Shown here piece by piece: positions 2-48,940 of a DNA stretch of 64,000 nt (position 1 is the first letter of the stretch; each line of letters begins with the position of its first letter). A model generated the notes under the pieces. That model was not told the origin of the DNA. It ran no database searches and saw only the letters and a list, made by a program, of their open reading frames with translations. Source of the DNA: an uncultured Gammaproteobacteria bacterium (GTDB lineage: Bacteria > Pseudomonadota > Gammaproteobacteria > JABCZS01); contig CAYLHG010000007.1 of assembly GCA_964383495.1 (NCBI GenBank), positions 2,861 through 66,860 of the forward strand, written 5' to 3'. Both the position numbers and the translations under genes were made by a program.

Positions 2-88
2 GAGGATCCTGTAGTATTTGCAGTAAAAGACCGTATTAGTTTGTATGCAGGATTTCTATTTGGATTAATATTTTGGTTGGCAACATGA
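2..88 (+). CDS. 3' end of a gene running off the window; the tail resembles the C-terminus of a UbiA-family polyprenyl-phosphate phosphoribosyltransferase (DPPR-synthase-like)
   Basis: Frame 2 is open from the window edge to TGA at 86-88 and reads EDPVVFAVKDRISLYAGFLFGLIFWLAT*. The tail is a hydrophobic terminal helix, and the stop overlaps the next ATG (ATGA at 85-88). The family call rests on only 28 residues plus the DprE1/DprE2-like neighbours. Confidence 0.35.
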   Translation, partial: EDPVVFAVKDRISLYAGFLFGLIFWLAT

Positions 89-1392
89 GCATCGTCACTT
101 CGTGGGGAAATTACCCTTATTTTTCACAAGCCTCTCACACTACTTATTGGCGTGAAGATATTGCACATGATTTTGATCAACTCATTCATCGTTACCAAAC
201 CACGTTAGCATTTGGGAATGGCAGAAGTTACGGAGACAGTTGCTTAGCAACTTCTGCAAACGTGATCAACATGTCTAGTTTAAATAGATTTATGAGCGTT
301 GATTGGGAAAAGGGTGTGATTATTGCTGAAGCAGGAATCACCTTAGGCGATATTTTAGAATTTTCTATTCCACACGGGTGGTTTTTACCAGTAACACCTG
401 GAACACAATATGTTACGTTAGGTGGTGCAATAGCCAATGATGTGCATGGTAAAAATCATCATATACGTGGCACTTTTGGATGTCATGTAAAACGTTTCGA
501 ATTATTGAGATCTGATCAAACTGCTAAAATCTGTTCTGCAACAGAAAATACAGAGCTATTTTCAGCCACCATCAGTGGATTAGGCATGACAGGAATTATC
601 ACTTGGGTTGAATTACAATTAATGCCTATCCAATCCCAATATATCAATACACGCACCATTCCATTTGAAAATTTGAACGAATTTTTTTTACTGTCCAAAA
701 CGTTTGACATGAAACATGAATACACTGTCGCCTGGGTTGATTGCTTAGCAAAAGGCGAACAGCTTGGGCGAGGTGTGTTTTTCATGGGAGATCACGCTGA
801 CAATGGGCCTATTGAAACTAATAAAAAGAAAAAAATTTCTATCCCATTCACGCCACCCAAATCAATGGTCAACGCGCTCACTTTAAAAATATTGAATACT
901 GTATATTATCGTTGCCATACTGCAGCTACCCAAACAGTCCATTATGAACCATTTTTCTATCCTCTAGATCGCATATTACAGTGGAACCGTTTATATGGAA
1001 ACAAAGGATTTCAACAATACCAATGCATTATTCCAGAAGCGCAGGCTGAGTCTGCTATGCATACTTTATTAGAGGTTATTGGAAAAAGCGGCCAAGGTTC
1101 TTTTTTGGCAGTGATGAAAAAGTGCGGAAAAATAATTTCTCCTGGCTTATTATCATTTCCTATGCCGGGGATATCACTTGCATTAGATTTTCCTCAAAAT
1201 GATTCATTAAATATGTTATTCTCTGCGCTTGATCATATTGTCCGAGATGCAGGTGGCAGACTATATCCTGCAAAAGATGCACATATGTCTGGCGAAGATT
1301 TTCGGCAATATTACCCAAAGTGGGAGCAACTATCTGCTTTGCGCGATCCTGCATTATGTTCACATTTTTGGAAAAGGGTTACTGAAGTATGA
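85..1392 (+). CDS. FAD-linked oxidase, DprE1-like (polyprenyl-phospho-ribose 2'-oxidase family)
   Basis: The motifs FGNGRSYGDSCL and LPVTPGTQYVTLGGAIANDVHGKNHHIRGTFGCHV closely parallel the mycobacterial DprE1 FAD-binding region. I prefer the ATG at 85 over the TTG at 73 because it forms an ATGA overlap with the upstream stop. Confidence 0.85.
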   Translation: MSIVTSWGNYPYFSQASHTTYWREDIAHDFDQLIHRYQTTLAFGNGRSYGDSCLATSANVINMSSLNRFMSVDWEKGVIIAEAGITLGDILEFSIPHGWFLPVTPGTQYVTLGGAIANDVHGKNHHIRGTFGCHVKRFELLRSDQTAKICSATENTELFSATISGLGMTGIITWVELQLMPIQSQYINTRTIPFENLNEFFLLSKTFDMKHEYTVAWVDCLAKGEQLGRGVFFMGDHADNGPIETNKKKKISIPFTPPKSMVNALTLKILNTVYYRCHTAATQTVHYEPFFYPLDRILQWNRLYGNKGFQQYQCIIPEAQAESAMHTLLEVIGKSGQGSFLAVMKKCGKIISPGLLSFPMPGISLALDFPQNDSLNMLFSALDHIVRDAGGRLYPAKDAHMSGEDFRQYYPKWEQLSALRDPALCSHFWKRVTEV

Positions 1393-2129
1393 AAAAAATA
1401 TTGATTATTGGTGCAACTTCCGCCATTGCAACAGCATGCGCAAAATATTGGGCCTCTGAACAAACAGAATTTTTCTTGGTTGCTCGAAACTCAGAAAAAC
1501 TTAAACAAACAGCAGATGACTTAATCGCTCGCGGCAGCATGAATACTACCTGTTATACATTAGACCTTAATCAATTTGACCAATATGATGCCATGTTAAC
1601 GTCATGTTTTCAAAAATTAGATACCGTAGATATTGCATTGATCGCACATGGAACACTTGCTGATCAAGAAGCTTGCGAAAAAGATGTAAATCTTACTTTG
1701 CGTGAAATATCCAACAATGGTTTGAGCGTTATTGCTATTCTTACTTTATTATCCAACCGCATGGAAGAACAACATTTCGGCAGCATTGCTGTTATTTCTT
1801 CTGTAGCGGGAGATCGCGGCAGAGCTTCTAATTATATTTATGGCGCTGCTAAGGCAGCAGTCACTACATTTTGTGATGGATTGCGTGGGCGTTTATACAA
1901 AACGGGTGTTCACGTTTTAACGATTAAACCTGGATTCGTTGATACCCCAATGACGAAAGGTTTACCCTTGCCACGCTTACTACTCGCATCACCTGAAAAA
2001 GTGGCACAAGATATTTGCGATGCTATTAAAAAACAAAAAAATGTAATTTATACACCTTGTTTTTGGGTAGGCATTATGTTCATAATCAAATCTATTCCAA
2101 ATTTTATTTTTAAAAGGTTGCCGTTATGA
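1389..2129 (+). CDS. Short-chain dehydrogenase/reductase, DprE2-like (keto-pentose reductase partner of DprE1)
   Basis: It has the N-terminal Rossmann motif KILIIGATSAIA and the SDR catalytic YGAAKAA (YxxxK). An ATGA overlap with the DprE1-like gene implies translational coupling. Confidence 0.75.
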   Translation: MKKILIIGATSAIATACAKYWASEQTEFFLVARNSEKLKQTADDLIARGSMNTTCYTLDLNQFDQYDAMLTSCFQKLDTVDIALIAHGTLADQEACEKDVNLTLREISNNGLSVIAILTLLSNRMEEQHFGSIAVISSVAGDRGRASNYIYGAAKAAVTTFCDGLRGRLYKTGVHVLTIKPGFVDTPMTKGLPLPRLLLASPEKVAQDICDAIKKQKNVIYTPCFWVGIMFIIKSIPNFIFKRLPL

Positions 2130-3763
2130 TCAAAAATTTATCTGACAAACAGATCATTGCTCCTTTTATTATTTTCGCTATTTTTCAAGTAGCATTAGCT
2201 ATTATCGGCGGGGTTCATCATTACAGCCCCGTTCCATTTGTAGATATGTGGGATGGACAAATGCCATTTCTAGCAAATACACGAGATTGGCATACTTGGT
2301 GGGCGCAACATAATGAACACCGAATTTTTTTGTCCCGGATACTGTTTTTAATGGACTTTAAATTTTTTAGCAGCAATGCTATTTTTTTATTTTTTTGTAA
2401 TTATTTATTTGCTTTTATGTCATTTATAATTTTCTTCATGGCATTAAAAGAAATGTTAAAAAATGAAAAAAATACCATTACATTACCTATCATGGCCTCT
2501 ATCCTTTTATGTTTATTGTTTTTTTGGGATCAAAAAGAAAATTTTACGTGGGCGTTTCAAAGTCAATTCTTTTTAGCATCGAGTTTACCCCTGCTTGCGT
2601 TTTATTCGTTGCATAAGTCATATACTTCTTCTCAAGTATATTGGTTTATTTTAGCGTGTTTTGTAGGGCTTCTTTCTAGCGGGGCAATGGCAAATGGCAT
2701 ATTAGCATCACCTATTATGGTTTTGTTAGCGATTACATTAAGAATGAAGTGGCCTTATATCGTTATCTTATTATTACTCGCATCATTTGAATTATTTTTT
2801 TATTTTAATGGTTATACTAAACCTTCCCAAGAAACTTCCATGATAGAAGATATTCTTAAAAATCCTATTGGGCTGATACGATACTCACTCGTATATCTAA
2901 GCAATCCCTTTGCTTCAATTGTTCATTCGAAAAAAATATTTTTCTTAATAAGCTCTCTTTTCCTTTTCAGCAGCTCCATGTGCTTATATCGCGCACTGAA
3001 GTCATGCACAACGTCTTCGCTTCAACTTGCTCTACTCGCATTCATTTTATATGTTGTTGCCACTGCTATGGTGACAAGCGGAGGGCGTTCTTTTTTAGGT
3101 ACTTCTCAAGCCTTATCAAGCCGATACGCTACACCAACTTTAATGATGTGGTCAGCATTATTTATATTATATGCGCCGTGGTTTGCAGAGCAGGCGCGCA
3201 AAAATAAATATCGCTTACTCGCATTATTAATTATCCCCGTAGTACTTTTTCCTTATCAAATAAAAGCATTATCCTCTCAAAAAGCGAAGGTTGCAGATAA
3301 AATGATCGCTGCACTTGCTTTGGCGATGCATATTCAAGATGATGAAATAATTATTTCTATTTATCCATTTCCAGGCCATGTTATCAATTCATCCAAAGAT
3401 CCCGCCAAAAAAAATATTGCTATTTTCAACAACCCTCTCATTAAAGGCGCTTCACATTTAATAGGGCAAAAAGAAAAAAATGTCTCCAATCGGATATGCG
3501 AAGGAGAAGTAACCAACATTATTTATTTAGAACATGCCCCTGAATATGTACGCATAGAAGGTACTTTATCATATGAAACTCAATCTCCTAAAGTAATACA
3601 TATTCTTTCTCAAGATCGCACTATTGTAGGCTATGCTTTAGGTGGCGCGCCTAGTGCTAAAAATCAATCTTTTAAATTTAAAGGTTATTTGAAACATGAA
3701 TATCAACATCAACCCATCATTTTAAAAGGGCTTAATCCTGATTGCGAAAAAGGTATCAATTAA
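2126..3763 (+). CDS. Polytopic inner-membrane protein with a C-terminal soluble domain; GT-C-like putative polyprenyl-phosphate-sugar-dependent glycosyltransferase
   Basis: The 545-aa product has roughly 10-12 hydrophobic segments in its first ~400 aa and a ~150-aa hydrophilic tail. There is an ATGA overlap with the upstream SDR gene. Function is inferred from architecture and context only. Confidence 0.5.
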   Translation: MIKNLSDKQIIAPFIIFAIFQVALAIIGGVHHYSPVPFVDMWDGQMPFLANTRDWHTWWAQHNEHRIFLSRILFLMDFKFFSSNAIFLFFCNYLFAFMSFIIFFMALKEMLKNEKNTITLPIMASILLCLLFFWDQKENFTWAFQSQFFLASSLPLLAFYSLHKSYTSSQVYWFILACFVGLLSSGAMANGILASPIMVLLAITLRMKWPYIVILLLLASFELFFYFNGYTKPSQETSMIEDILKNPIGLIRYSLVYLSNPFASIVHSKKIFFLISSLFLFSSSMCLYRALKSCTTSSLQLALLAFILYVVATAMVTSGGRSFLGTSQALSSRYATPTLMMWSALFILYAPWFAEQARKNKYRLLALLIIPVVLFPYQIKALSSQKAKVADKMIAALALAMHIQDDEIIISIYPFPGHVINSSKDPAKKNIAIFNNPLIKGASHLIGQKEKNVSNRICEGEVTNIIYLEHAPEYVRIEGTLSYETQSPKVIHILSQDRTIVGYALGGAPSAKNQSFKFKGYLKHEYQHQPIILKGLNPDCEKGIN

Positions 3764-4708
3764 ATGCATTCACGTGATCTTAAAATCATATTGCCTGGAG
3801 GCGCCGGGCTTGTTGGACAAAACCTTGTTGCACGTCTTAAGCAGCGCGGATACAATCATTTGCTTGTTTTAGACAAGCATAAAAAAAATTTAGATATTCT
3901 AAAACAATTACACCCTGATGTTACTACTGTTTATGCAGATCTTTCAGAACCAGGAGAATGGGAACCATACTTTCAAGATGCGGATGTCGTTGTAATGCTA
4001 CAAGCGCAAATTGGTGATCTTCATCCTGAACCCTTTATCCGCAATAATATTACTTCAACTCAGCATGTATTATCAGCCATCAAAAAATATCAAATTTCTT
4101 ATACAGTACACATCAGTTCATCTGTAGTTAAATCAGTAGCTGATGATCATTACACTCGCACCAAACGTATACAAGAAGAGCAAGTATTAGAAAGTGGTAT
4201 CCCTTGTGTTGTGTTACGTCCCACGCTTATGTTTGGTTGGTTTGATAGAAAACATTTAGGATGGCTTTCTCGATTTATGCAAAAAATACCTGTATTTCCG
4301 ATTCCTGGTGACGGAAAATACATGCGACAGCCCCTTTATGTAGGAGATTTTGCCAAAATTATTGTTAGCTGTATTGAACACCAGATCACAGGAAAAGTGT
4401 TTAACATTACAGGGTTGGAAAAAATAGATTATATTGATATTATTCATGCTATTAAAAAAACAACTTCTTCAAAATCCATCATTGTGAATATTCCTTATTG
4501 GGTTTTTTATGCACTCTTAGAAATGTGGTCTTTTTTTGATAAAAATCCACCGTTCACAACTGCTCAGCTTACTGCTCTCGTTGCACATGATGAATTTGAG
4601 GTGATCGACTGGCCCACTGTTTTTAACGTAACACCTACTCCTTTTGAAAAAGCTATTCATGAAACTTTTCATCATGATACTTATAGCAACATTGTACTGG
4701 AGTTTTGA
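3764..4708 (+). CDS. NAD-dependent epimerase/dehydratase family protein
   Basis: The N-terminal ILPGGAGLVGQNL is a glycine-rich Rossmann motif, and YTRTK is a YxxxK motif. Length is 314 aa. The start abuts the previous stop (TAAATG). Confidence 0.8.
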   Translation: MHSRDLKIILPGGAGLVGQNLVARLKQRGYNHLLVLDKHKKNLDILKQLHPDVTTVYADLSEPGEWEPYFQDADVVVMLQAQIGDLHPEPFIRNNITSTQHVLSAIKKYQISYTVHISSSVVKSVADDHYTRTKRIQEEQVLESGIPCVVLRPTLMFGWFDRKHLGWLSRFMQKIPVFPIPGDGKYMRQPLYVGDFAKIIVSCIEHQITGKVFNITGLEKIDYIDIIHAIKKTTSSKSIIVNIPYWVFYALLEMWSFFDKNPPFTTAQLTALVAHDEFEVIDWPTVFNVTPTPFEKAIHETFHHDTYSNIVLEF

Positions 4709-5995
4709 ATGACACAACGTATTGCTATATTAGGTGCAGGACCCATGGGGCTGGCAGTCGCTTATCAACTTGTACAAGATGGGTATCAGCCCATTATTTT
4801 TGAGGCCGACGATCGCCTAGGAGGAATGGCTGCTTCCTTTGATTTTAATGGCATTGAAATTGAGCGTTATTATCACTTTCACTGCATTTCGGATACTGGA
4901 TTTCTCAATATCTTAAAAGAACTTTCTCTGTTAAAAAAAATGCATTGGGTAAAAACCAAAATGGGTTATTTTTATCAAGGGAAAGTTACCCCCTGGGGGA
5001 ATCCGATTGCATTGCTTAAATTTCCTGGGTTAAGCATTATTGCAAAATTTAGATATGGTCTTCATGCTTTTTTATCCACAAAACGTAAAGATTGGCGCTC
5101 TTTAGATAAACTGGACGCTGTTCAATGGATTCAAGATTGGATTGGCATAGAAGCTTACAATGTGTTATGGAAAAAATTATTTGAGTTTAAATTCTATGAT
5201 TATAAAAATAATTTATCAGCTGCTTGGATTTGGAGCCGCATTCACAGAATTGGTCGCTCCCGTTATAATTTATTCGAAGAAAAATTAGGGTACCTAGAAG
5301 GCGGATCAGATACTTTGCTCCAAGCGATGAGAGATTACATTGAAAAAAACGGCGGAGAATTTCATTTAAAAAGCCCAGTATCACGCGTTATCATTGAAAA
5401 TAACCAAGTTAAAGGAATAGAAGTTAATGGTCTTGTCACTGCTTTTGACAAAGTCATTAGCACCATTCCGCTACCTTATGTGCCTCGCCTTATGCCTGAT
5501 TTACCCCAGACTGTTTTAAATCAATTCAAGTCACTTCATAACATTGCTGTGGTTTGCGTGATCGTAAAATTAAAAAGAAAAGTTACTGATAATTTTTGGC
5601 TGAATGTTAATGATGATAGCATGGATATTCCAGGTATTATTGAATACACACAGCTGCGCCCTATGAGTGATCATATTGTATATGTGCCGTTTTATATGCC
5701 AGGAGAGCATCCAAAATTTAAAGATCCTGATCAAGTTTTCTTAGATAAAGTAAAAAATTATTTGAAAAAAATCAACCCTGAATTACAGGATGAAGATTTT
5801 ATCGAACTACGTGCAAGCCGTTATCGACATGCACAACCCATTTGCCCGCCAGGATATTTGAGTAAACTGCCCCCCGTTGCATTACCCATCAAAGGGTTAT
5901 GGGTTGCGGATACGTCTTATTATTATCCTGCAGATCGCGGCATTTCTGAAAGCATAGATTTTGGACGCATGATGGCAAAAATGGCAATCACATGA
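4709..5995 (+). CDS. FAD/NAD(P)-binding oxidoreductase (amine-oxidase / phytoene-desaturase-like fold)
   Basis: The N-terminal IAILGAGPMGLAVAYQL...EADDRLGG is a dinucleotide-binding beta-alpha-beta motif. Length is 428 aa. The start abuts the previous stop (TGAATG). Confidence 0.8.
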   Translation: MTQRIAILGAGPMGLAVAYQLVQDGYQPIIFEADDRLGGMAASFDFNGIEIERYYHFHCISDTGFLNILKELSLLKKMHWVKTKMGYFYQGKVTPWGNPIALLKFPGLSIIAKFRYGLHAFLSTKRKDWRSLDKLDAVQWIQDWIGIEAYNVLWKKLFEFKFYDYKNNLSAAWIWSRIHRIGRSRYNLFEEKLGYLEGGSDTLLQAMRDYIEKNGGEFHLKSPVSRVIIENNQVKGIEVNGLVTAFDKVISTIPLPYVPRLMPDLPQTVLNQFKSLHNIAVVCVIVKLKRKVTDNFWLNVNDDSMDIPGIIEYTQLRPMSDHIVYVPFYMPGEHPKFKDPDQVFLDKVKNYLKKINPELQDEDFIELRASRYRHAQPICPPGYLSKLPPVALPIKGLWVADTSYYYPADRGISESIDFGRMMAKMAIT

Positions 5996-6405
5996 TTAAA
6001 CACTTTGCATCAAAACAATTCGTTGCTTTCTTGTGTACGGGGGGAGTTGCCGCACTGGTTAATTTTTTAAGCCGTATTATTTATAGCGAATGGTTTTCTT
6101 TTTCAGCGGCGATCATTATTGCTTATGTCACAGGCATGATCACTGCTTTTATTTTAGCAAAAATATTTGTGTTTAAAAAAGCAACCCAAACGTTTCAACG
6201 ATCGATTTTTTTCTTTTGTTTAGTCAACCTTGCATCTATTGCACAAACGTTAATTATCAGTTTGATTTTGGCTAATTATCTTCTGCCATTTTTCCACGTT
6301 ATTCATTTTAAGCTGGAAATAGCCCATGCAGCTGGGGTGGTTGTCCCTGCTTTAACTAGCTATATTGGCCACAAACGCTGGTCTTTCCGAGAGCTTCCTT
6401 ATTAG
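5992..6405 (+). CDS. GtrA-family membrane protein (polyprenyl-phosphate-sugar translocation associated)
   Basis: The 137-aa product has four hydrophobic helices and the C-terminal H-K-RWSF motif typical of GtrA-like proteins. There is an ATGA overlap with the preceding gene. Confidence 0.8.
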   Translation: MIKHFASKQFVAFLCTGGVAALVNFLSRIIYSEWFSFSAAIIIAYVTGMITAFILAKIFVFKKATQTFQRSIFFFCLVNLASIAQTLIISLILANYLLPFFHVIHFKLEIAHAAGVVVPALTSYIGHKRWSFRELPY

Positions 6406-6537
6406 CCTAGGTTAAGAATTTATTAACAATTTGTTACATAAGCATAAAAAAAACTACTGTCTCTTATAAAATATGGTATAATTTAGTTAACCATATTTAT
6501 TTGGTAGCTTAACATTGTACCCTATAGAGGCCTTATT

Positions 6538-7764
6538 TTGAAAACTACAGCTGTATTAACACAATATCATGAGACAACTACCACACTCAATACTGCACAT
6601 ATAAGCATCGCAGGCTCTAAATACAACAATAACAAAGAGTTAGCAGCAAGGGAACAAGAAGACACTTACAGTTACGGCGCCCTAGTGCTGCCTGAGCTCT
6701 CCCGTGAAGTACAAGAAACAGCACTCAAACACACCATTATAGAGCTCGCCGAGTCTCTCCTAAAAGGAGGCGAGGATGCCTGTATTGCTCAAGACTCCGG
6801 CTGTACTTTACTAGCCACGTGTGGCAGCGCTTGGGCTTCCGTAGGAGATAGTATTCTTCTTAAATGTACGCTTCAAGCGAATAATCAGGTTCGCCTGGAG
6901 CTTGTTAACCCTCTCCATCATATTACCCGCGCAGAAATTGAGCTGTGGCGTAAAACAAGTGAACAACAATTGCCTCTTTTTAATGTTATTAAATTCCATA
7001 ATCTTGACAAAAAAGGCAGAGGAAAATGGGCCGGTTCCGAAATGATGCGTGCCTTAGGGAATGTTTCTCATCATGAAGAATATGGGATGCACCATACACC
7101 CAGCAGCGGGCTTTTCTCAGATGTTAACGATGAGAAAAAAATATTTATTATTACTGCTTCAGATGGGTTATTCCATTGTGCCTTTCCTCAACTCATAGCA
7201 TTGCAAGCACGATATACAGCTATTGAGGAATCTTTTCAAAAAAGCCCGCAAAAAGAAGATGATTATTTGAAAAAATTAGATGAGCTCGATAAAATAGATC
7301 AAGATAAATATAAAATAATACTATCTGTTTTTGAAGCAAGCATTAATGATGCAATTTTAAAATATGGGCACGCAAATACGGATATTATTAAAAACGCGTT
7401 GGCAGAAACTTTAGCAGGTCTTCATAACGGTAATATTGAGCATTGCCTTGATAATGTCACCATACTGGTAAGCCATGCACTAAATAATGAGTTTACCATG
7501 GTGGCAGATGGGCATTCCGGAAAACAATCAGCGGAATATGTTGCAGAAAATTTCAAAAAAATATTGCAGCAACACTTATTAGCACTACATCAGTCTAAAG
7601 AAGATGATCCCTCCGTTTCTTATTCTGTGCCCCAAAAACATTTTGCCCCTCTTAGTCCGAGCTCAGCTTCTAGTAGTCCGCGACCTGGTACACCACTAGA
7701 ATCAAATAACCACTCAGTCTCTCAAAGTCCTGTGACCACAGCCATCAGAAAATTCCCATCATAA
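6538..7764 (+). CDS. PP2C-like Ser/Thr protein phosphatase, divergent, with motif 2 (DGH) relocated to the C-terminal region
   Basis: PP2C motifs seen are REQED (res 38-42), SVGDS (101-105), MMRALGN (169-175), IITASDGLF (204-212), DNVTILV (305-311) and MVADGHSGKQSAEYV (321-335). The tail is Ser/Pro-rich. The start is a TTG and is uncertain. Confidence 0.7.
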   Translation: MKTTAVLTQYHETTTTLNTAHISIAGSKYNNNKELAAREQEDTYSYGALVLPELSREVQETALKHTIIELAESLLKGGEDACIAQDSGCTLLATCGSAWASVGDSILLKCTLQANNQVRLELVNPLHHITRAEIELWRKTSEQQLPLFNVIKFHNLDKKGRGKWAGSEMMRALGNVSHHEEYGMHHTPSSGLFSDVNDEKKIFIITASDGLFHCAFPQLIALQARYTAIEESFQKSPQKEDDYLKKLDELDKIDQDKYKIILSVFEASINDAILKYGHANTDIIKNALAETLAGLHNGNIEHCLDNVTILVSHALNNEFTMVADGHSGKQSAEYVAENFKKILQQHLLALHQSKEDDPSVSYSVPQKHFAPLSPSSASSSPRPGTPLESNNHSVSQSPVTTAIRKFPS

Positions 7765-7885
7765 CATGTTGATCCATAAAATCCGTTATCGAAATACTCA
7801 TGATGCTTGTCAAGCCGTTCCATTAAACTTACCTAAATCTACTTAACTTTGACCGCAAGCTCAAAGCCACGCTTCCCGCTGACAC

Positions 7886-7910
7886 GGGAGAACTCTCCCT
7901 ATTGTTTTTT
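7886..7910 (+). terminator. Possible weak rho-independent terminator downstream of the PP2C-like gene
   Basis: The stem is GGGAG-AACT-CTCCC, followed by TATTGTTTTTT. The stem is short (5 bp) and lies about 120 nt after the stop codon. Confidence 0.35.
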
Positions 7911-7979
7911 AGCTCCTTTGCGGTATACTGTTCTGATCTGTTCTTTTTTTGAACAGTTTTTAGGCAGTAGGAGGTTTTG

Positions 7980-8747
7980 ATGTCTACGACATTAGAAAGT
8001 TATATGAATAGTTTAGATGATATATTGGAACGTCTTCGCAAAGAAAATATCAGTTTCCTTACTTATCAATATTTCATCGAAGCGTTGCATGCTAATGCTA
8101 TTCCAGGGTTCAATCCGGATACCAAAAAGGTGTTATTATTTGTTGAAACCGTAGTTAATACAAGCAATGCAGCATATTTGAAAGAAACTTTGTTCCAAGC
8201 GCATTTAAATTTTAGAAGAGCCTTGCGGACATTAGATATCACCATTGAGCCTTTCAAGAACATCGTTTCACAATTATATAATCATTATAACAGGCTACAT
8301 CCAAATCCAGAAACGAAACGGCAAATTCAAAAAAAGGAATTGTTAAGACAACTAACCCATCTTAGTGTTACTTTAATGAATGCGTTAACCATATTTCCTC
8401 CACAGCAGATGGAGAAAAGTGCAGTTGAAGGGGTAAAATCATGCTTTGACAGTATGGCTCAGCTCTTAGAAACGCCGGCTTTGAAAGATCAAGGCATTGC
8501 ATACGCTATTCACAGCTGGCCACAAGACATTTTTCAATGCCTTTTTGAAGGAGAGGAATGGACCTCAGATACTTATAGAAGGCTCAAGCCTCATTTTGTT
8601 GGCATAAGCGCAGCAATTACGCATCTGCAGGAACGGTTCCAAGCACTTGATACCATCAGAAAGCAAGTTCGCAGTGAACTACCACCCCACGACCCTGCTA
8701 ATATTGGACCTGTAGCCGGTTTAAGGCAACCGGGCGCACGCGCATAA
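7980..8747 (+). CDS. Hypothetical protein (predicted all-helical, no recognisable motif)
   Basis: The open frame gives ~255 aa. AGGAGG lies 6-7 nt upstream of the ATG at 7980, immediately after the TTG at 7977. I recognise no family. Confidence 0.5.
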   Translation: MSTTLESYMNSLDDILERLRKENISFLTYQYFIEALHANAIPGFNPDTKKVLLFVETVVNTSNAAYLKETLFQAHLNFRRALRTLDITIEPFKNIVSQLYNHYNRLHPNPETKRQIQKKELLRQLTHLSVTLMNALTIFPPQQMEKSAVEGVKSCFDSMAQLLETPALKDQGIAYAIHSWPQDIFQCLFEGEEWTSDTYRRLKPHFVGISAAITHLQERFQALDTIRKQVRSELPPHDPANIGPVAGLRQPGARA

Positions 8748-9177: not shown

Positions 9178-9894
9178 ATGAATTTATTCAAATCGATAGC
9201 AATAGTTTCACTGGTACTCGGCCTCACGGTAAACGCGGCAATGGCAAAAATCAACCTTATGCCAGAGGAACCACCCGCTTGCGGTGTGGTGGCTGATCCT
9301 AATGCAGGCGCAAATACATTGTCCATTAGCTCTCCTAGTAAAGACCTAGAGAAAGCAAGCGACCATGTGACATATTGGACAAAAGGTCTCTGCACGAAAA
9401 AAGAGGGGAAAAGTTTTTATAAGAATCTTGCCGATGATTGTCAAAAGGCAGCTCAACACGGGGCGGACAGACGTACTCAGGACAAAGGTAATAAAATCCA
9501 GAAGTGCGTAAAAGGCTTCAACGCTTGGGTTGCATTAAACACAAAGGCTGCTAGTGATAAGGCTGATGCTGATGCTGATAAAGCCAAAGCAGATGAAGCT
9601 GCTGCGCTGCAAGCGAAGGTAGACGCTTGTGATAAAATGGCTGCGGGGTCAGGCTCTGATTGTGCCTGCCGAAATGAATTCAAAACTAAAGTGAGCGATG
9701 CAACTTCTACACAAGATTTTGTCAATGGGACGACTCAACCTTTAGTTGCTGGATTGAAAACATGGATTCCTAATACAGGCGTGCCTGCTGTAGGCCAATG
9801 CCCTGCTGGAAACGCACCATGCCAACAAAGACAAGACTTGATCGATGCAAGAACATGCTGTGCTTTAGTGAATGGTAGTGACTGCGGCGTGTAA
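9178..9894 (+). CDS. Secreted Cys-rich hypothetical protein
   Basis: The signal peptide is MNLFKSIAIVSLVLGLTVNAAMA, with AGGAG upstream. The mature part has about 16 Cys and a KADADADKAKADEAAALQAK low-complexity helix. A clear terminator follows. Confidence 0.6.
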   Translation: MNLFKSIAIVSLVLGLTVNAAMAKINLMPEEPPACGVVADPNAGANTLSISSPSKDLEKASDHVTYWTKGLCTKKEGKSFYKNLADDCQKAAQHGADRRTQDKGNKIQKCVKGFNAWVALNTKAASDKADADADKAKADEAAALQAKVDACDKMAAGSGSDCACRNEFKTKVSDATSTQDFVNGTTQPLVAGLKTWIPNTGVPAVGQCPAGNAPCQQRQDLIDARTCCALVNGSDCGV

Positions 9895-17825: not shown

Positions 17826-19631
17826 TTAGTACTTAGGTGTAGTACTATTACTGCTAACACCCTCCCCTGAGGTGCCACCACTTTTGAAATGCAAGAATCT
17901 TACCGGCGGGGATCCCGCTAAAGGCGCTTGCGTCTGTTCTATAATAGCAAGCTCGCGCGCCACTGTTTTCAAATTAGTCTCTGCATATGTTTTATCTTTA
18001 AAACATTCTTTAGCAGGGCGCTCAGTGTAAGGGTACGAAGCACTATATCGAACAATCGCTTTCACACCACTTTCGTCCCCATCTAATCTTTTCGGTGTCT
18101 TAATACCATATGTAGCAAATAATTTCTCTAATACATTTATAAAGCTTATTTGTTCTGAACCACGATTTTTAATAAAAGATAATGTTTTTCGAGCACAATG
18201 CGCACACATTTGATATGTAGAATGCATGTCCATTACAACTGCATGTATTTTATAACCTCTTAAAGAGCTTATGTTTTTGTCTTTTGTACCCGGAAACATT
18301 TTTAAAACCAAATCAGTTAACACTTGCTTCATTAAACTCTCGTTGTACATTAAGCTCTCGTAATATAAGGTTTCACTATGCGCATCAGTTTGCGAGTTAT
18401 ATCTCCTGCCGGCTTCTGATTGAGTAATATTCTCTATGGGTGTTCTTCCTTGGCTGTGCTGGCTACTACTTCCTGGTCTATCTGGGGTAGGAGGAAGTGC
18501 ACTCCTTGCTGCTATAGATCCTTTCCCTTTTCTACTGCTTGAATTATTTGAAAATTCAAAATGAAGGCTCGCGCTGGTTGCTAAATTATTTGCAAAATCT
18601 TCCCGTTTTTTTTGATCAGTCAGTGGGGATAATGCAAATTGTAATGACTTTTTTCCCTCGATAAAAACAGAAACAAATTTTCGTCCTACGCTTGAATTAT
18701 TGGAAATAGGCCTATCAGAAATCACAAATCCGATACTTGCAAAAATGCAATTCCCTTTGCCATACACTCCCAAATTAACGTACGCCTCATGAGCTTTCTT
18801 CATTTTGGCATGTATGTCATTTCCTGGTACATCAATTTGTTTATATGGTCGAGTCTCTGCATTTTTACTGGGATAAATAAGATCGAGATCAAATCTTTCA
18901 TGTATAAACCCTTCGCTTAATGAGCTTGTAGTAATAGCAGGTGTTACTGTCACAGTGGAAGCAGTTGGCTCTGTTATAGCCGGAGTAGCAGGTGGTACAG
19001 GAGCTTTTGCAGGATCATATTGTGGTAATGCCAACGCAGCTTCGTAAGTGTACCCAGAAGCACATTCACGATTCGAACATTTCAACACCTCAGCACGCAT
19101 TGGATTTTTGCCTTTAGTTGATTTTTTAGTAGGCCCTAGATCAATATCAAAAAAAGTTTGATGCTGACAGCAGCTACAAGCTCTATCTGCGTAAAAATAA
19201 TTACCAGGAGCAAATTGAATGTTGTTCTTAAGACGACCACCTACTGTCGCTGCGCTTAAAGGTGTTTTTGTTTTTTGATTTATGAAAGGGTTTCCCTCTT
19301 GCGTGGGATTATAATAATATCGCGTATCTTGTCTCTCAATATAAGCAATATAAATAAGAGGATGTAGCTCTGTCGCAGGTGTTACTACTGGAGGTTCGGC
19401 AGGCTTCGGAGTTGCTGCAAGTACAAGCGCAGGCGCCACTGGCGTATCCTCAGCAGGCGCAACAGGGATAGGAATCGGAATCAAAAGCGGCTGCAGAACA
19501 CCCACTTGAGCAACAACCTCAGGGGCAGCAGGAGCCACAACAATGTGAGGAAAAATCGGCGATAGCGATGCAAAGGGCGCCCGTGCCACTACTGGCGGCA
19601 GTACAACAGGTATCTTGGAAGAAGATTTCAT
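17826..19631 (-). CDS. Orphan 601-aa protein: Pro/Val/Ala-rich N-terminus, Cys cluster, and a C-terminal region with a deaminase-like HSE...CAHC signature
   Basis: This is a long uninterrupted ORF. The N-terminal ~90 aa are P/V/A-rich (IPIPIPVAPA), and there is a Cys cluster CSCCQHQ...CSNREC. The signature is DAHSETLYYESL (H418, E420) then VVMDMHSTYQMCAHCARK (C476, C479). No signal peptide is evident. Confidence 0.7.
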   Translation of the reverse strand: MKSSSKIPVVLPPVVARAPFASLSPIFPHIVVAPAAPEVVAQVGVLQPLLIPIPIPVAPAEDTPVAPALVLAATPKPAEPPVVTPATELHPLIYIAYIERQDTRYYYNPTQEGNPFINQKTKTPLSAATVGGRLKNNIQFAPGNYFYADRACSCCQHQTFFDIDLGPTKKSTKGKNPMRAEVLKCSNRECASGYTYEAALALPQYDPAKAPVPPATPAITEPTASTVTVTPAITTSSLSEGFIHERFDLDLIYPSKNAETRPYKQIDVPGNDIHAKMKKAHEAYVNLGVYGKGNCIFASIGFVISDRPISNNSSVGRKFVSVFIEGKKSLQFALSPLTDQKKREDFANNLATSASLHFEFSNNSSSRKGKGSIAARSALPPTPDRPGSSSQHSQGRTPIENITQSEAGRRYNSQTDAHSETLYYESLMYNESLMKQVLTDLVLKMFPGTKDKNISSLRGYKIHAVVMDMHSTYQMCAHCARKTLSFIKNRGSEQISFINVLEKLFATYGIKTPKRLDGDESGVKAIVRYSASYPYTERPAKECFKDKTYAETNLKTVARELAIIEQTQAPLAGSPPVRFLHFKSGGTSGEGVSSNSTTPKY

Positions 19632-22330: not shown

Positions 22331-23506
22331 TTATTCCCCCTTCAAAGCAGGATATTCACCATTCTTAAATACCCACACGTCCCGGCTCCAACGCTTACTT
22401 TCAGGAAATGTTTTATCATGTTGCTTTGTCATCTCTTTTGTTGATTTTCCTTCACCACCTTCAACTCCTGCATATTTACGTTGTGCAAGTTGTTTATCAA
22501 AATAAGCCTCAATCACACCCACTTTACTACCAAAATCTCCATCACGATTTTCCGCACCAATTAACCCGCGCCCATTGTCTATTGCAACAACCTCACCCGC
22601 AGCATAGACGTGATCCAATGTTGCACTACCAAAACGAATTCGACCAATAAGCCCACCTGAAAATGAAAATGAACCTACCAAAACACGTGCGTAACTGTTT
22701 TTAATAAGTAAATTATCACCTTCCAACATGCCAACTAACCCACCTGAATGATAAGGCGAGCTTACGAAGCCTGCTGCAGAAGATTGCATAATACTCACAT
22801 TATCTCCTGCATCACCCACGAGCCCTCCAAATACCATGTCTTCAGGATACGGCTCCGTACGCTGTCCTTCTTGGATAGGTAGTAATCCTGTTACGCTGCT
22901 ATTTTCAATCCCCACACCGTACGCAACGCCGAAAAACCCTCCTGCAAACGTATGTTGTTTGATCGCGATATTCAATAAACGTACGTGCAGAATCTTGCTA
23001 TCAACAGCTAAGCCCGCAAGCCCACCCGCAAATCCAGACACATTCCATAGAGAATCATTTGTTGTATCACCCGCAATTATAATATCTTTTCCCGTAATAT
23101 CACTGACAGTAGTTCCTTTCATATCCCCTGCAAGCAACCCACGGTGCGTATCATCGTCACTCAGTACCATTACATTTTCAAATGCAAGATCTGAAATCGT
23201 AGCCCCTTGAGTGTTTTCAAATAAACCACCTTTTTTATCTTTGCCACTTCCTGCGGTGATCATTAAATGGCGAATTGCATAAACGCCTCCATCGGCTTTA
23301 TTGCCTGAAAGTGTGCCAGAAAAAGTGCCTTTAATAGGCGTGAAATCAAACCCTGTGCAATTAATGTCTTCAATTAAATGATAGTCAGCTTTCAGATTAG
23401 CGCCCATGCTTTGTAGATCGGTGCAAGAAGCAATGGCAATGCTTTCATCAGCATGTCCTATTTGCAGAAAAGAAAACAGAGCGAGTGTAGATAATAGCTT
23501 GAACAT
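22331..23506 (-). CDS. Secreted GLUG-motif repeat protein
   Basis: The signal peptide is MFKLLSTLALFSFLQIGHA. Repeated GGLxG-type motifs follow: GGLAGLAV, GGFFGVAYG, GGLVGDAG, GGLVGMLEG, GGLIGRIR and RGLIGAEN. Confidence 0.65.
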   Translation of the reverse strand: MFKLLSTLALFSFLQIGHADESIAIASCTDLQSMGANLKADYHLIEDINCTGFDFTPIKGTFSGTLSGNKADGGVYAIRHLMITAGSGKDKKGGLFENTQGATISDLAFENVMVLSDDDTHRGLLAGDMKGTTVSDITGKDIIIAGDTTNDSLWNVSGFAGGLAGLAVDSKILHVRLLNIAIKQHTFAGGFFGVAYGVGIENSSVTGLLPIQEGQRTEPYPEDMVFGGLVGDAGDNVSIMQSSAAGFVSSPYHSGGLVGMLEGDNLLIKNSYARVLVGSFSFSGGLIGRIRFGSATLDHVYAAGEVVAIDNGRGLIGAENRDGDFGSKVGVIEAYFDKQLAQRKYAGVEGGEGKSTKEMTKQHDKTFPESKRWSRDVWVFKNGEYPALKGE

Positions 23507-29966: not shown

Positions 29967-30647
29967 ATGTCACTATTTGCTAAACAACCCACCATCATCG
30001 CCCCTTCTATTTTATCTGCACGTTTTGGACGGCTCGCGGAAGAAGTAACCAATGTGATTGACGCAGGCGCTGATTGGATACATTTTGATGTGATGGATAA
30101 TCATTTCGTGCCTAATTTAACCGTAGGCCCGATGGTCTGCAAAGCACTGCGTGATGAAGGTGTCAAAGCCCCGATTGACGTGCATTTAATGGTGACACCG
30201 GTTGATTCATTAATCACACCTTTTGTAGAAGCCGGTGCAAATATGATTACATTTCACCCAGAAGCTTCTTTTCACGTTCACCGCACCTTACAACATATTC
30301 GATCTTTAGGATGCCATGCGGGGATTGCATTAAATCCTGCAACACCCGTTGAAGTATTAGCAGATATTTTGCCTGATGTAGACATGATTTTAGTAATGTC
30401 AGTGAATCCTGGCTTTGGCGGGCAAGCTTTTATTCCGCAAATATTACATAAAATTGAACGCATACGAAAAATGATTGATGCCTGCGGGAAATCTATTCGT
30501 TTGGAAGTAGATGGCGGCGTTAATCTTGATAATATTCGCGCTATTTATGATGCGGGTGCAGATACATTTGTGATGGGAACAGCCATTTTTGGAAGCAAAG
30601 ATGGCTATCCCCAAACACTGGAGAAAATTAAACAGTTATTGAAGTAG
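29967..30647 (+). CDS. rpe: Ribulose-phosphate 3-epimerase
   Basis: The motifs [31 protein letters not shown] and EVDGG are typical of Rpe. Confidence 0.95.
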
Positions 30648-31784
30648 CGGTTTACTACTCACTACCGCTGAGCCTCTATTATGATCACTCAAAGATGGTT
30701 TTGATAACAATATTTTTCCTCCTTCTACATAAGTAGTACGTTTTTGCATCTGCTGTTGATGCAATGTTACTGCTATCGTCGCTAACAAAGACAATACTAT
30801 TGTTGTCGATACAAAGACCAATATTCCTGTTTCTGTGAGCGGGCTATCATGCAATTCAGTATTTTTTGGCATCGCTTGAGAAATAGCAAAGCATAATCCA
30901 AGCCCTATCCCCGCACCTAATGATCCCCCTATTAATGCTGCCAATACCCTATTTTCAATATTTATAGCAGGATTTGTAGCCTCTAACATAAATTTCTCTT
31001 TTAAAAAAAACGCTGTGAACAGAGAAAACAAACCAAGCCAGCTTGAAATTATAACAAAGCAAAGCATCTCTACGTCATCCTTCCAATCACATATAATTAA
31101 ATAAGGCCCCAATGGTATGAGAGCAACGCTTGCACTCATTAATGTGCAATCTAAAATAACTTTTTCAGCACCAATGATCATAGGTGTTGGCAAGATATAT
31201 GGATATGGATGAGTAAATGTTGCGATTGGAACTTTATAGTTTATCCAATCAACAATCACGCCATCCAATGTTGTATTATCTGTAATAGCTCCTACTCTAT
31301 TTGCATAAGCGCGCAACGCTTGATAAGCTACATTTAATTCAATATTTAAGCCATCAAAATAAACATAATCAACATTTTTTTTCCACCGATATAATTGATT
31401 TACTTCTGGCACATACTCATATACACCTTCTTCCACATCTTTTTCAATTACCTTACCTTTCTTTAAGATCATAGGATCAATACACAAAGTACTACTATAT
31501 GAATTTAGAATGATTTCAATCAGACTTTGATGTGCAATTGCTTCAGCAATTTGATTTTCAGCTTCTCGTGCTTTTTTCAACAGTTTTTCATACAAAAAAA
31601 TTTGCTCTTCAAACAAATGCAATTCTCGAAAAGCTTTGCATAACGTTTGAGCAAGTGCTGCTAAAATTTCTAGCCCATTCTGAGCATTAACCAACTCTGT
31701 CGAGGGTAATTTAGCTTCTATGGTTGTCAGAAGCTCCATTTCTATTTCGTTTGAACCTCTCATCATTGCCTCTCCTCTTTGCAT
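30636..31784 (-). CDS. Hypothetical protein: helical N-terminal half and a C-terminal half with about 4 TM segments
   Basis: The 382-aa ORF has no recognisable motif. Its stop overlaps the 3' end of convergent rpe by 12 nt. The start is uncertain (alternative Met 7 or 8). Confidence 0.5.
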
Positions 31785-32804: not shown

Positions 32805-34037
32805 TTAATCTTTAACCAAAGAAAACGCAGAATCCATCCGCTCTATTTCTCTTTTCTTAATTCCAAATTTTTCTGCCTCTAATTTCCAATTTGATAAAAC
32901 GTGTTGAAGATCATGAACAATAACATTTGCTTCATCTTTATCAAGATCAAAATAACTTGCCACACTTAATACATGTTCAATTGTTCCTGTGCCATCATGA
33001 AAATCAATATACGTAGATAAGATACGAGGCTTAACATCCAAGGGCACAGGATTTAAATCATAGGCAGGAGATAAATGCCACCCTCGATCTCTATCGTATA
33101 AAAAAGCATGATTCCTCAAATGATCATCTGTATTTGAAATCAATACATTAAATAGCATACGGCGCCACAACTGTTTTAGATCTTTTTCAGGATACGACCC
33201 ATATTGCCTAATAGCATCTGCTAAATCCAAATAGCTACCCGCTTCATTATCATTCGCATTCAACATGCTCATCGCAGACAAAAACGGGATACGCGCTGTT
33301 TTTTTTCGATCAAAACGTTTCGATAGTAATACAGGCAATTCATTTACGATATTTATCTTAAAATCAGGAACTGTAATGCCACACATTTTTGCTAACATCA
33401 GCGCAACGGCTTCCCACCTAACAACATCTATTTCATCTTGTACCAATGGGAATTTAGCAATCATTAAATGACCATCCAGATCGCGAACCGATGCTTTAGG
33501 CCTCGCTCCGCCCAAAGAAGAACCTGGAGCAAGCAATAATCTGAGATCTTCATACGAACCTGAATCATCATTAATATGTTGAGATGCCGTTAATAACTTC
33601 GGCAAATCCAATAAAGGCGGGATGGATGTATCATTCTTATCTGCTAAAAAAGGTCCTCCTAATTTTTCTGCAAAACGTAATGCTCCCATTCTAGCTTCAT
33701 CATTGACTTGCAATAAATAATCAATTTCCATTAATGTCCGAGGCAACTCTTTTGCTGCGGCTGCGCGCTGACGTTCAGCGCGCCTCATTAAAGCTCTTCC
33801 CCAACGATCAGGCGCAGAATCACTTAATGAAGCGAATATTTTTTTATCAGTATGATACGATCCACCCCCCTGTGCAAGTAAAGGTTCAATAGCAAAAAAA
33901 TTTGGATTCTGTAACCAATTTTGATTATATTCAAAAGAAGCGCTTTCAATTTTTTTACGTACACGTGTCCATAATTTTCCTACCAATAAGGGGGAATTAT
34001 CAATATCTAAATAAACCCAGATCAATTTTTCCATCAC
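32805..34037 (-). CDS. hipA: Type II toxin HipA-family Ser/Thr kinase
   Basis: It has a HipA N-domain followed by a kinase core with LGGARPK and the catalytic NTDDHLRNHAF. Length is 410 aa. It lies 11 nt downstream of an HTH antitoxin gene. Confidence 0.85.
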   Translation of the reverse strand: MMEKLIWVYLDIDNSPLLVGKLWTRVRKKIESASFEYNQNWLQNPNFFAIEPLLAQGGGSYHTDKKIFASLSDSAPDRWGRALMRRAERQRAAAAKELPRTLMEIDYLLQVNDEARMGALRFAEKLGGPFLADKNDTSIPPLLDLPKLLTASQHINDDSGSYEDLRLLLAPGSSLGGARPKASVRDLDGHLMIAKFPLVQDEIDVVRWEAVALMLAKMCGITVPDFKINIVNELPVLLSKRFDRKKTARIPFLSAMSMLNANDNEAGSYLDLADAIRQYGSYPEKDLKQLWRRMLFNVLISNTDDHLRNHAFLYDRDRGWHLSPAYDLNPVPLDVKPRILSTYIDFHDGTGTIEHVLSVASYFDLDKDEANVIVHDLQHVLSNWKLEAEKFGIKKREIERMDSAFSLVKD

Positions 34038-48895: not shown

Positions 48896-48940
48896 ATATT
48901 TCTCTCCAAGTAAAAGCTGTGCCATTGTACCATAAAATAG

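Follow-up and report, generated by a model that had tools for sequence, protein, structure and literature searches.

A putative PP2C/PPM phosphatase with a non-cyclically rearranged motif order in an uncultured gammaproteobacterium

What becomes of a PP2C phosphatase when one of its metal-binding motifs is encoded at the far end of the gene? The PP2C/PPM phosphatases have for decades been defined by eleven motifs in a fixed order, and the question is raised by a gene on contig CAYLHG010000007.1 of an uncultured gammaproteobacterium, at positions 6538 to 7764 of the 64 kb stretch of DNA analysed here (the window). The gene had been predicted, from its sequence, to encode a PP2C-like protein in which motif 2, with its Asp-Gly-His (DGH) core, is displaced to the C-terminus. 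Both parts of that prediction are borne out. A profile of the protein and its five relatives matches human PPM1A with E = 1.1e-12, the significant Foldseek matches are to PPM structures only, the alignments with canonical PP2Cs run in two out-of-order stretches, and DGH follows the Asp-Asn (DN) pair of motif 11 in all six proteins. We consider it quite probable that the protein is a metal-dependent Ser/Thr phosphatase of the PPM/PP2C fold whose polypeptide order has been rearranged non-cyclically, and our verdict is that the variant is real and topologically new within a known enzyme family.

The gene and the elements along its product are as follows, with residue numbers of the query protein and, for the models made with AlphaFold2 (AF2), values of the predicted local distance difference test (pLDDT):

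6538..7764, forward strand: rearranged PP2C/PPM phosphatase gene, 408 amino acids, TTG start, stop codon included (list of open reading frames, ORFs)
6649..6681, forward strand: motif 1, R38-E-Q-E41-D42, and the following strand (residues 42-48); D42 invariant, strand pLDDT ~81
6682..6702, forward strand: short loop, residues 49-55, where canonical PP2Cs have beta3-DGHGG-alpha1; no DGH (family alignment and model secondary structure)
6703..6762, forward strand: helix 56-75, equivalent of canonical alpha2 (second switch helix), at its original place; AF2 pLDDT 83-93
6799..6852, forward strand: motifs 5-6, the G88-C-T90 strand and V102-G103-D104-S105; G88, T90, G103 and D104 invariant, aligned to GSTAV...CGDS of PPM1A
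7048..7062, forward strand: motif 8, RALGN 171-175; N175 in the query, Asp in the other five members
7150..7173, forward strand: motif 9, ITASDGLF 205-212; ASDGL invariant, aligned to ILACDGI of PPM1A, with D209 equivalent to the metal ligand D239
7174..7422, forward strand: helical region 213-295 between motifs 9 and 11 (alignment; helices 217-235, 240-276 and 281-294)
7450..7476, forward strand: motif 11, D305-N306, and strand 307-313, the last strand of the canonical PP2C domain; DN invariant, D305 equivalent to PPM1A D282
7483..7602, forward strand: relocated unit, residues 316-355, with strand 318-326, D324-G325-H326 and helix 330-355 (canonical alpha1, first switch helix)
7606..7761, forward strand: tail rich in Ser, Pro, Thr and Asn, residues 357-408; pLDDT <50, predicted disordered

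Read directly from the query, REQED (38-42), SVGDS (101-105), RALGN (171-175), ITASDGLF (205-212), DNVTILV (305-311) and MVADGHSGKQSAEYVAENF (321-339) all stand where the original prediction had placed them, and the codon of D324 is GAT at 7507-7509. The interval after motif 1, said to be devoid of DGH, is indeed so: the loop 49-55 contains none, and the whole reading frame holds a single one. E41 and D42 are equivalent to E37 and D38 of PPM1A, and R38 is the candidate phosphate-binding Arg. The residues D324, G325 and H326 correspond to D60, G61 and H62 of PPM1A, of which H62 is the proposed general acid; likewise, D104 corresponds to D146, a ligand of the third metal. Helix 56-75 is read as the equivalent of alpha2 because its profile columns align with PPM1A from residue 101, right after the stretch 53-88 that comprises motif 2 and alpha1. 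The tail had been called disordered, and as a prediction this holds over the whole of 357-408; Ser, Thr, Pro, Asn and Gln make up 60% of the last 30 residues.

In a canonical PP2C, beta1 leads to the Glu-Asp (ED) of motif 1, which is followed by beta2, beta3, the D-G-H-G-G of motif 2, alpha1, alpha2 and beta4, and so on to the D-N of motif 11 and the last strand. In the query, the first part would run from beta1 through E41-D42, beta2 and a short loop directly to alpha2 (56-75) and beta4. The last part would run from D305-N306 through the last strand (307-313) and a 4-residue turn to beta3 (318-326) with D324-G325-H326, then alpha1 (330-355) and the disordered tail. The canonical collinear order of motifs 1 to 11 is not kept, as motif 2 follows motif 11. 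The original prediction spoke of an apparent circular permutation, and this part of it did not stand: motif 1, with D42 between beta1 and beta2, is still N-terminal, and just beta3-DGH-alpha1 has moved behind motif 11. No ED motif is found between DN and DGH. A true circular permutation was also judged less likely because alignments to Pfam PF13672 span the motif-1 Asp solely in the constructs, described below, in which the unit was returned to its canonical place. What has taken place is a non-cyclic relocation of an internal unit to the C-terminus.

Is this order a peculiarity of one sequence? An exhaustive phmmer search (HMMER) with the query alone (P0001) against 1.84 billion representative proteins returned five relatives: P0002 (E = 3e-42), P0003 (3e-10), P0004 (3e-8), P0005 (1e-5) and P0008 (3e-4). 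All come from uncultured bacteria and are 21-37% identical to the query in the six-sequence alignment. In each of them DGH lies C-terminal to DN, at a spacing of 16-23 residues, so that homologues with the same displaced order, for which the original prediction had suggested a search, do exist. D42, G88, T90, G103-D104, G174, H186, A207-S208-D209-G210-L211, D305-N306 and D324-G325-H326 are invariant in all six. The members differ mainly around this core. P0008, the smallest (307 residues), has no tail and ends with alpha1; P0001 to P0003 carry Ser/Pro-rich tails; and in P0004 and P0005 some 150 residues, with helical extensions, follow the relocated unit. Extra residues within the region equivalent to 213-295 are present in P0001 to P0003 and P0005 and absent from P0004 and P0008.

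The ~150-residue region of P0004 and P0005 adjoins the switch helix alpha1, and both proteins (locus L005, 900-2630) also have an N-terminal extension of ~120 residues ('WKTKVLRGG...'). P0008 (locus L006, 8001-8924) contains the sequence 'IEFDGLS' at residues 59-66, in the loop at the canonical place of motif 2. These residues might be a remnant of motif 2 at its first location; since the other five members do not conserve the Asp, the resemblance may also be due to chance.

The rearranged family is rare: at single-sequence sensitivity it comprises six clusters at 50% identity in a library standing for ~15 billion proteins. A word-indexed protein search with the query returned no protein but the query itself. 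The same search with the family alignment returned just the query, P0005 and generic PP2Cs and was uninformative, because its candidate list was saturated by common PP2C words. A reference-genome scan gave no match with the query and, with P0002, only the metagenome-assembled genome (MAG) of P0002 itself; a metagenome scan with a three-member alignment gave only the contigs of P0002. Neither a tblastn search of plasmids nor the PHROGs database gave a match.

The profile of the six members was compared with the sequences of the Protein Data Bank (PDB), where the best 60 of 78 matches were listed. All of these 60 are canonical PP2Cs, and wherever two stretches are matched in the alignments printed, they are out of order. 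In the alignment with PPM1A, profile positions 360-398 fall on residues 53-88 and positions 102-260 on residues 101-244. About 30 plant PP2C chains, including HAB1 and ABI1, are matched via the C-terminal segment alone (profile 354, 357 or 358 to 390), with E ~1e-8 to 1e-9. An hhalign comparison with the canonical trypanosomatid PP2C P0009 is split in the same manner, with family positions 86-251 on residues 165-339 and 292-341 on residues 80-134. The split, out-of-order alignment proposed earlier as a check was thus seen against both PPM1A and P0009. In the search of the 1.84 billion proteins, the canonical PP2C P0007 matches residues 318-399 of the query only (E = 1.1e-4). The significance of the DGH match, on which the original prediction depended, is supported by this hit, by the plant chains matched through the segment alone and by its invariance in the six proteins; at the level of sequence, the C-terminal DGH segment is PP2C motif 2, well beyond chance.

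The profile is also closer in sequence to eukaryotic than to bacterial PP2Cs: PPM1A, PPM1D, PPM1K and the plant clades are matched with E = 1e-12 to 1e-8, Stp1 with ~1e-5 and the cyanobacterial chains 2J82 and 2XZV with ~1e-3.

AF2 models were computed from the six-sequence alignment for the query (mean pLDDT 67.9, predicted template-modelling (pTM) score 0.70) and for the minimal member P0008 (pLDDT 73.4, pTM 0.77); the order of the elements is the same in both. The first half of the query model has strands at 26-29 and 42-48, the helix 56-75, strands at 88-95, 98-102, 106-112 and 118-122, and a flap region. The second half has strands at 189-192 and 202-207, helices within 209-294, strands at 307-313 and 318-326, and the helix 330-355. 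The C-terminal strand and helix form a block with a pLDDT of 80-92. According to a Foldseek search of the PDB, the query model has 18 matches with a probability of 0.95-1.00, all of them PPM/PP2C or TAB1 structures. The P0008 model has 106 matches at E <=1e-3, of which the top 50 are all PP2Cs and the best is PPM1K (4DA1; E = 3e-10, TMt 0.60). Across the models TMt reaches 0.62; TM-scores of this modest size are to be expected from Foldseek, whose alignments follow the order of the sequence. The alpha-beta-beta-alpha sandwich of the family is thus present in the predicted structures.

If the C-terminal unit is a displaced motif 2, returning it to its canonical place should be visible to an ordinary PP2C profile. 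The unit was cut from 9 residues before the Asp of DGH to 30 residues after it and either deleted or pasted 8 residues past the motif-1 Asp (Option A), and the natural, unit-deleted and re-inserted sequences were scanned against Pfam. On PF00481, the query scores 19.0 bits in its natural form, gives no match upon deletion and reaches 22.4 bits, above the cutoff, upon re-insertion (profile 29-122). P0004 scores 93.0 bits in two stretches, the better being residues 146-353 on profile 63-255, against 82.7 bits upon deletion and 99.9 bits in a single stretch (29-255) upon re-insertion. The corresponding values for P0008 are 73.5 bits in two stretches, 59.6 bits, and 83.9 bits in one stretch (29-255); P0005 rises from 69.7 to 74.9 bits upon re-insertion. 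P0002 is uninformative (28.9 natural, 28.4 deleted, 28.3 re-inserted), and P0003 rises on PF13672 from 21.6 to 38.5 bits (profile 2-119). Because, in most members, deletion lowers and re-insertion raises the scores, the C-terminal unit carries real PP2C signal, and more of it at the canonical place.

How could the fold be completed by a strand encoded at the other end? The structure of SpoIIE offers a guide. Its two sheets have the strand orders beta1-beta10-beta9-beta6-beta7 and beta2-beta3-beta4-beta5-beta8; alpha1 and alpha2 belong to the connection between beta3 and beta4 at the top, the base has short loops, and the two termini are neighbours (PMC3517971). By analogy, the relocated strand would insert between beta2 and beta4 of sheet 2, its usual place, and would thereby bring D324 and the carbonyl of G325 to the binuclear Mn2+/Mg2+ centre with D42, D209 and D305. 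From the SpoIIE topology, beta3-alpha1 should both start and end at the base of the sandwich, where beta2 ends and alpha2 starts. The last strand would also end there, probably opposite beta3, because each is the second strand of its sheet. The connections from beta2 to alpha2 and from the last strand to beta3 could then both be short, because all of these ends lie at the base. As for the origin of the arrangement, a segment of a eukaryote-type PP2C was probably duplicated and its original copy then lost; one round of duplication and truncation is not enough to yield a relocation in which the first motif is still first.

All four metal-binding Asp equivalents noted in the original prediction are conserved across the family. 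The complete M1/M2 ligand set is invariant in the six proteins, with D42 equivalent to D38, D324/G325 to D60/G61, D209 to D239 and D305 to D282 of PPM1A, for which the ligand roles have been described (PMC10115812). Catalytic competence is likely because all of these ligands are conserved, and the most likely activity, as judged from sequence, is ordinary Mn2+/Mg2+-dependent hydrolysis of phospho-Ser/Thr. It would follow the standard PPM mechanism, with a metal-activated water and with R38 binding the phosphate. All six members have an Arg or Lys 4-6 positions ahead of the motif-1 Asp, its equivalence being judged from sequence.

Several observations weigh against this reading. The models, built on six sequences, reach moderate confidence (mean pLDDT 68 and 73), and with six members the conservation statistics are thin. 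In the query, N175 replaces the Asp of motif 8, and H213 stands at a position that is Asp or Glu in the other members; the activity of the query could be reduced by these exchanges. Re-insertion adds little to the score of the query (3.4 bits) and nothing to that of P0002. On its own, the query remains below the 20.3-bit cutoff of PF00481, with residues 166-228 as the best stretch, and an NCBIfam scan and a single-sequence search of the PDB with the query gave noise only. Because of this score, it is the family profile and the predicted fold that carry the PP2C assignment.

Could the same sequence be threaded through the fold in another way? The C-terminal DN-strand-turn-strand-DGH-helix could itself be motif 1, motif 2 and alpha1, forming the canonical beta2-beta3 hairpin in sheet 2, while in sheet 1 the N-terminal D42 hairpin would stand in for the last strand, that of motif 11; this would leave the active site unchanged except that the Asp residues exchange roles (Option B). 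The hhalign comparison does put D305-N306 on the canonical 'EDN' of motif 1 of P0009, and the DN-to-DGH spacing equals that of canonical motif 1 to motif 2 (D38 to D60 in PPM1A). Constructs made accordingly score slightly higher than re-insertion for P0001 (25.1 vs 22.4 bits) and P0005 (77.5 vs 74.9), but lower for P0004 (94.6 vs 99.9), P0008 (76.2 vs 83.9) and P0003 on PF13672 (27.6 vs 38.5). Moreover, their alignments end at profile 227-230 and never read the N-terminal hairpin as motif 11, whereas natural P0004 and P0008 align collinearly up to the last profile position (255/255) at the DN motif. The consensus motif 11 fits 'GSTDNITVMI' and the consensus motif 1 fits 'RRSQEDRF'; a helix stands ahead of DN as in motif 11, and a strand ahead of D42 as in motif 1. 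We therefore favour relocation of the unit (Option A) and hold the exchange of roles to be decidedly unlikely. A different proposal keeps the roles and changes the partner: in an obligate domain-swapped oligomer, beta3-DGH-alpha1 would complete the active site of the neighbouring subunit, and activity would need dimerisation. The PP2C domain of SpoIIE was crystallised as a dimer that exchanges beta1-beta3 with the crossover between beta3 and alpha1 (PMC3517971), a terminal location makes such an exchange sterically easy, and in the query model a short linker of 4 residues joins the DN strand to the relocated one. Yet the SpoIIE-based reasoning above provides a short intramolecular route, and the AF2 monomer models place the unit with high confidence, so that we regard an obligate swap as very unlikely.

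The protein might alternatively be a catalytically dead pseudophosphatase or scaffold similar to TAB1, its C-terminal DGH being the vestige of a degraded second PP2C copy without a structural role. TAB1 structures are among the top Foldseek matches of the query model, N175 and H213 stand where other members are acidic, and the Pfam score of the query is weak. However, DGH and the surrounding hydrophobic pattern are invariant in six proteins of 21-37% identity, and P0008 stops right after alpha1, which leaves no room for a degraded second domain. Unlike TAB1, the family keeps all M1/M2 ligands, and N175 and H213 lie outside that set. Without the unit, sheet 2 would miss the strand between beta2 and beta4, the very unit that AF2 places with high confidence. 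We find this explanation highly improbable. The chance that the order is an artefact of assembly or annotation, in which a chimeric contig or a frameshift fuses a truncated PP2C gene with the beginning of a second one, is virtually nil. The window does come from a metagenome-type assembly, and the sole other contig with the gene (L001) is identical and stems from the one sample recorded for the query protein. Nevertheless, five further proteins, which stem from different samples and assemblies (JGI, NCBI, Logan), have the same order, and the gene is one uninterrupted frame with a single DGH and, downstream, no PP2C remnants in any frame. A chimera, a frameshift or a hidden upstream DGH was ruled out on the basis of the family-wide order and a clean frame scan. 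A pattern scan of the three forward frames of 6300-8000 matched solely the ADG of ADGH at 7504 and revealed no second or frameshifted DGH, and the 212 nt 3' of the gene contain no PP2C remnants in any frame. An upstream start that supplies a second, canonical DGH, which would have spoken against the original prediction, does not exist: TTG at 6538 is the sole ATG, GTG or TTG codon upstream of motif 1, and the frame is closed by an in-frame TAG at 6505-6507.

Relocation of the unit may also have consequences for regulation. Movement of the Asp-Gly junction and of alpha1/alpha2 recruits the M2 metal and switches PP2Cs on (Bradshaw et al.). In the rearranged family, the junction and alpha1 lie at the terminus next to variable tails or domains, which may, speculatively, have a regulatory meaning. 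In its strongest form, the PP2C 'switch' would be a detachable plug, and the relocation itself functional, since it places the M2-binding Asp-Gly junction and alpha1 at a free C-terminus beside a variable tail or extra domain. If so, the active site would assemble only on docking of the C-terminal unit: after passage through secretion in the unfolded state, through a host factor bound to the tail, or in trans between subunits. We offer this as a tentative and rather unlikely extension.

The comparison with known systems supports the assignment and marks its limits. With eukaryote-type PP2C/PPM enzymes (PF00481; PPM1A 1A6Q/4RA2, PPM1K, HAB1/ABI1), which give the best sequence and structure matches of the family, the query shares the predicted fold, the metal ligands, the GDS, ALGD-type and DN motifs and the Arg near motif 1. 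It differs from them in that beta3-DGH-alpha1 follows motif 11 rather than motif 1, in that ~255 residues of sequence separate the switch helices alpha1 and alpha2, and in that motifs 9 and 11 are set apart by a large helical insertion and the chain ends in a disordered Ser/Pro-rich tail. The Legionella proteins Lem3 (PDB-code: 8ANP) and SidD (PDB-code: 6RRE) are host-directed PPM-fold enzymes with C-terminal extensions and without a cognate kinase (PMC10115812). P0004 and P0005 resemble them in their helical C-terminal extensions. In Lem3 the ligand order is canonical (D82, D105/G106, D254, D394), and the phosphate-binding Arg is replaced by L68 in Lem3 and F74 in SidD, which have phosphodiesterase-type activities (PMC10115812). 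The rearranged family, in contrast to these two canonically ordered proteins with a hydrophobic residue at that position, retains Arg or Lys there. Neither Lem3 nor SidD is among the best 60 of the 78 profile matches in the PDB. In SpoIIE, the N-terminal strands, including the motif-2 strand, can come from another chain, while the sequence order is canonical (PMC3517971). That swap is a crystal form, whereas the rearrangement described here is encoded in the gene and conserved; the relocated unit corresponds to the Asp-Gly junction and alpha1 of the SpoIIE-type alpha1/alpha2 'regulatory switch'. Circularly permuted enzymes such as the GTPase CpgA/YloQ (cited in PMC3517971) likewise keep their fold with an altered motif order, but theirs is a cyclic shift, while the query keeps its first motif in place and has an internal unit transferred to the C-terminus.

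The phosphatase gene is flanked by the following signals:

6474..6482, forward strand: promoter-like extended -10 element TGgTATAAT, ~55 nt 5' of the start codon; an inference, read from the sequence
6526..6530, forward strand: Shine-Dalgarno-like AGAGG, 7 nt 5' of the TTG; read from the sequence
7886..7966, forward strand: terminator-like hairpins at 7886-7899 and 7938-7956, both with T-runs, separating the phosphatase gene from the ORF at 7977; consensus matches only

A consensus promoter scan did not list the TGgTATAAT element, because it has no good -35 hexamer. Taken together, the AGAGG box, this element and the two hairpins make the gene look monocistronic. Its GC content (40.5%) and the GC content at third codon positions (31.5%) match those of the window, and therefore there is no sign of recent transfer.

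Does the surrounding DNA suggest whom such an enzyme might serve? The original prediction had noted that no kinase partner is nearby, and this agrees with our scan of 30 window ORFs for families, which found no Hanks-type kinase. The only kinase-like gene among them encodes a HipA-like Ser/Thr kinase toxin (32805-34037, reverse strand; PF07804 HipA_C, 160.8 bits), ~25 kb from the phosphatase. No secretion-system family was matched among the same 30 ORFs, and the window has the character of an ordinary Gram-negative chromosome, with LptD, SurA and Icd. The family members are stand-alone genes in unrelated contexts, and all loci are low in GC (37.5-43%). The tail of the query is rich in Ser, Thr, Pro and Asn with Phe at position -3, which fits the translocation signal of a type IVB (Dot/Icm) effector without being specific for one; P0008 has no tail. 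The closest homologue, P0002, comes from the MAG JABCZS01, which gives its name to a GTDB order; in the marker-gene tree of one paper this order is grouped with Berkiellales and with UBA6186/Ca. Azoamicales, the order that includes ciliate endosymbionts. A eukaryote-like, possibly host-directed protein fits this context (eukaryotic-type profile, stand-alone gene, JABCZS01 lineage), although the evidence for it, and for the effector of an intracellular bacterium suggested by the original prediction, is circumstantial; a secreted, host-directed phosphatase is the most plausible guess at its role.

Other genes of the window are recorded here as observations in their own right. Upstream, at 73-6405 on the forward strand, lie six abutting or overlapping genes for a FAD_binding_4 oxidase, an SDR protein, a 545-residue protein without a Pfam match, a NAD epimerase, an amine-oxidase-type flavoprotein and a GtrA-like membrane protein. 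They look like an operon for the modification of envelope glycans or lipid-linked sugars, and the first two resemble a DprE1/DprE2-type pair. The two genes downstream of the phosphatase (7977-8747 and 9178-9894, forward strand) have no Pfam or PHROG match; the product of the second (238 residues) is Cys-rich with a hydrophobic, signal-like N-terminus, and its GC content of 46% is above that of its neighbours. The product of 22331-23506 (reverse strand, 391 residues) matches the N-terminal region of M26 IgA1-specific metallopeptidases (37.9 bits), a domain of host-interaction type that is unusual for an environmental gammaproteobacterium. AAA_14/DUF4143 ATPase genes occur in the window (45458-46747, reverse strand) and twice around the P0002 gene in its MAG (locus L002, 1358-2494 and 11009-12166); this pairing with the phosphatase homologues may be coincidental. 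Large ORFs without a Pfam match lie at 17826-19631 (601 residues), 56950-58230 (426 residues) and 30636-31784 (382 residues), all on the reverse strand. The first two have no NCBIfam match either, and such ORFs are typical of genomes rich in lineage-specific, possibly secreted proteins. The isocitrate dehydrogenase gene (47465-48925, reverse strand; PF18324+PF00180 type) has a few relatives at 74-89% identity, including a Gammaproteobacteria MAG (89%), and relatives at ~70% identity in Acidobacteriota, Chloroflexota and Bacteroidota, which suggests that this gene type is horizontally transferred.

A search of the literature on permuted PP2C/PPM proteins found no description of such an arrangement and no solved structure. 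The sole PP2C-related mention concerns a hypothetical circular permutation between PP2C and proteasome proteases (PMC5468089). Annotation pipelines and Pfam models assume a fixed motif order, and for this reason the query falls just below threshold and one member of the family is annotated merely as 'serine/threonine protein phosphatase PrpC'. If the reading is correct, the family would show, by an example from nature, that the PP2C fold can withstand a non-cyclic change of order. This would be relevant to the evolutionary connection, dependent on a permutation, that has been proposed for PP2C phosphatases and proteasome-type proteases (PMC5468089). The C-terminal end of the gene would encode a catalytic strand, two of the metal ligands, the His proposed as general acid and one of the two switch helices with a regulatory role. 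The fold would thus tolerate a rearrangement that is less common than a circular permutation and for which one step of duplication and truncation does not suffice. The family would also provide a ready-made split system for asking how the alpha1/alpha2 switch controls metal binding. For the organisms concerned, uncultured low-GC Gammaproteobacteria related to protist-associated lineages, this small family of eukaryote-like phosphatases would represent a set of candidate host-directed enzymes.

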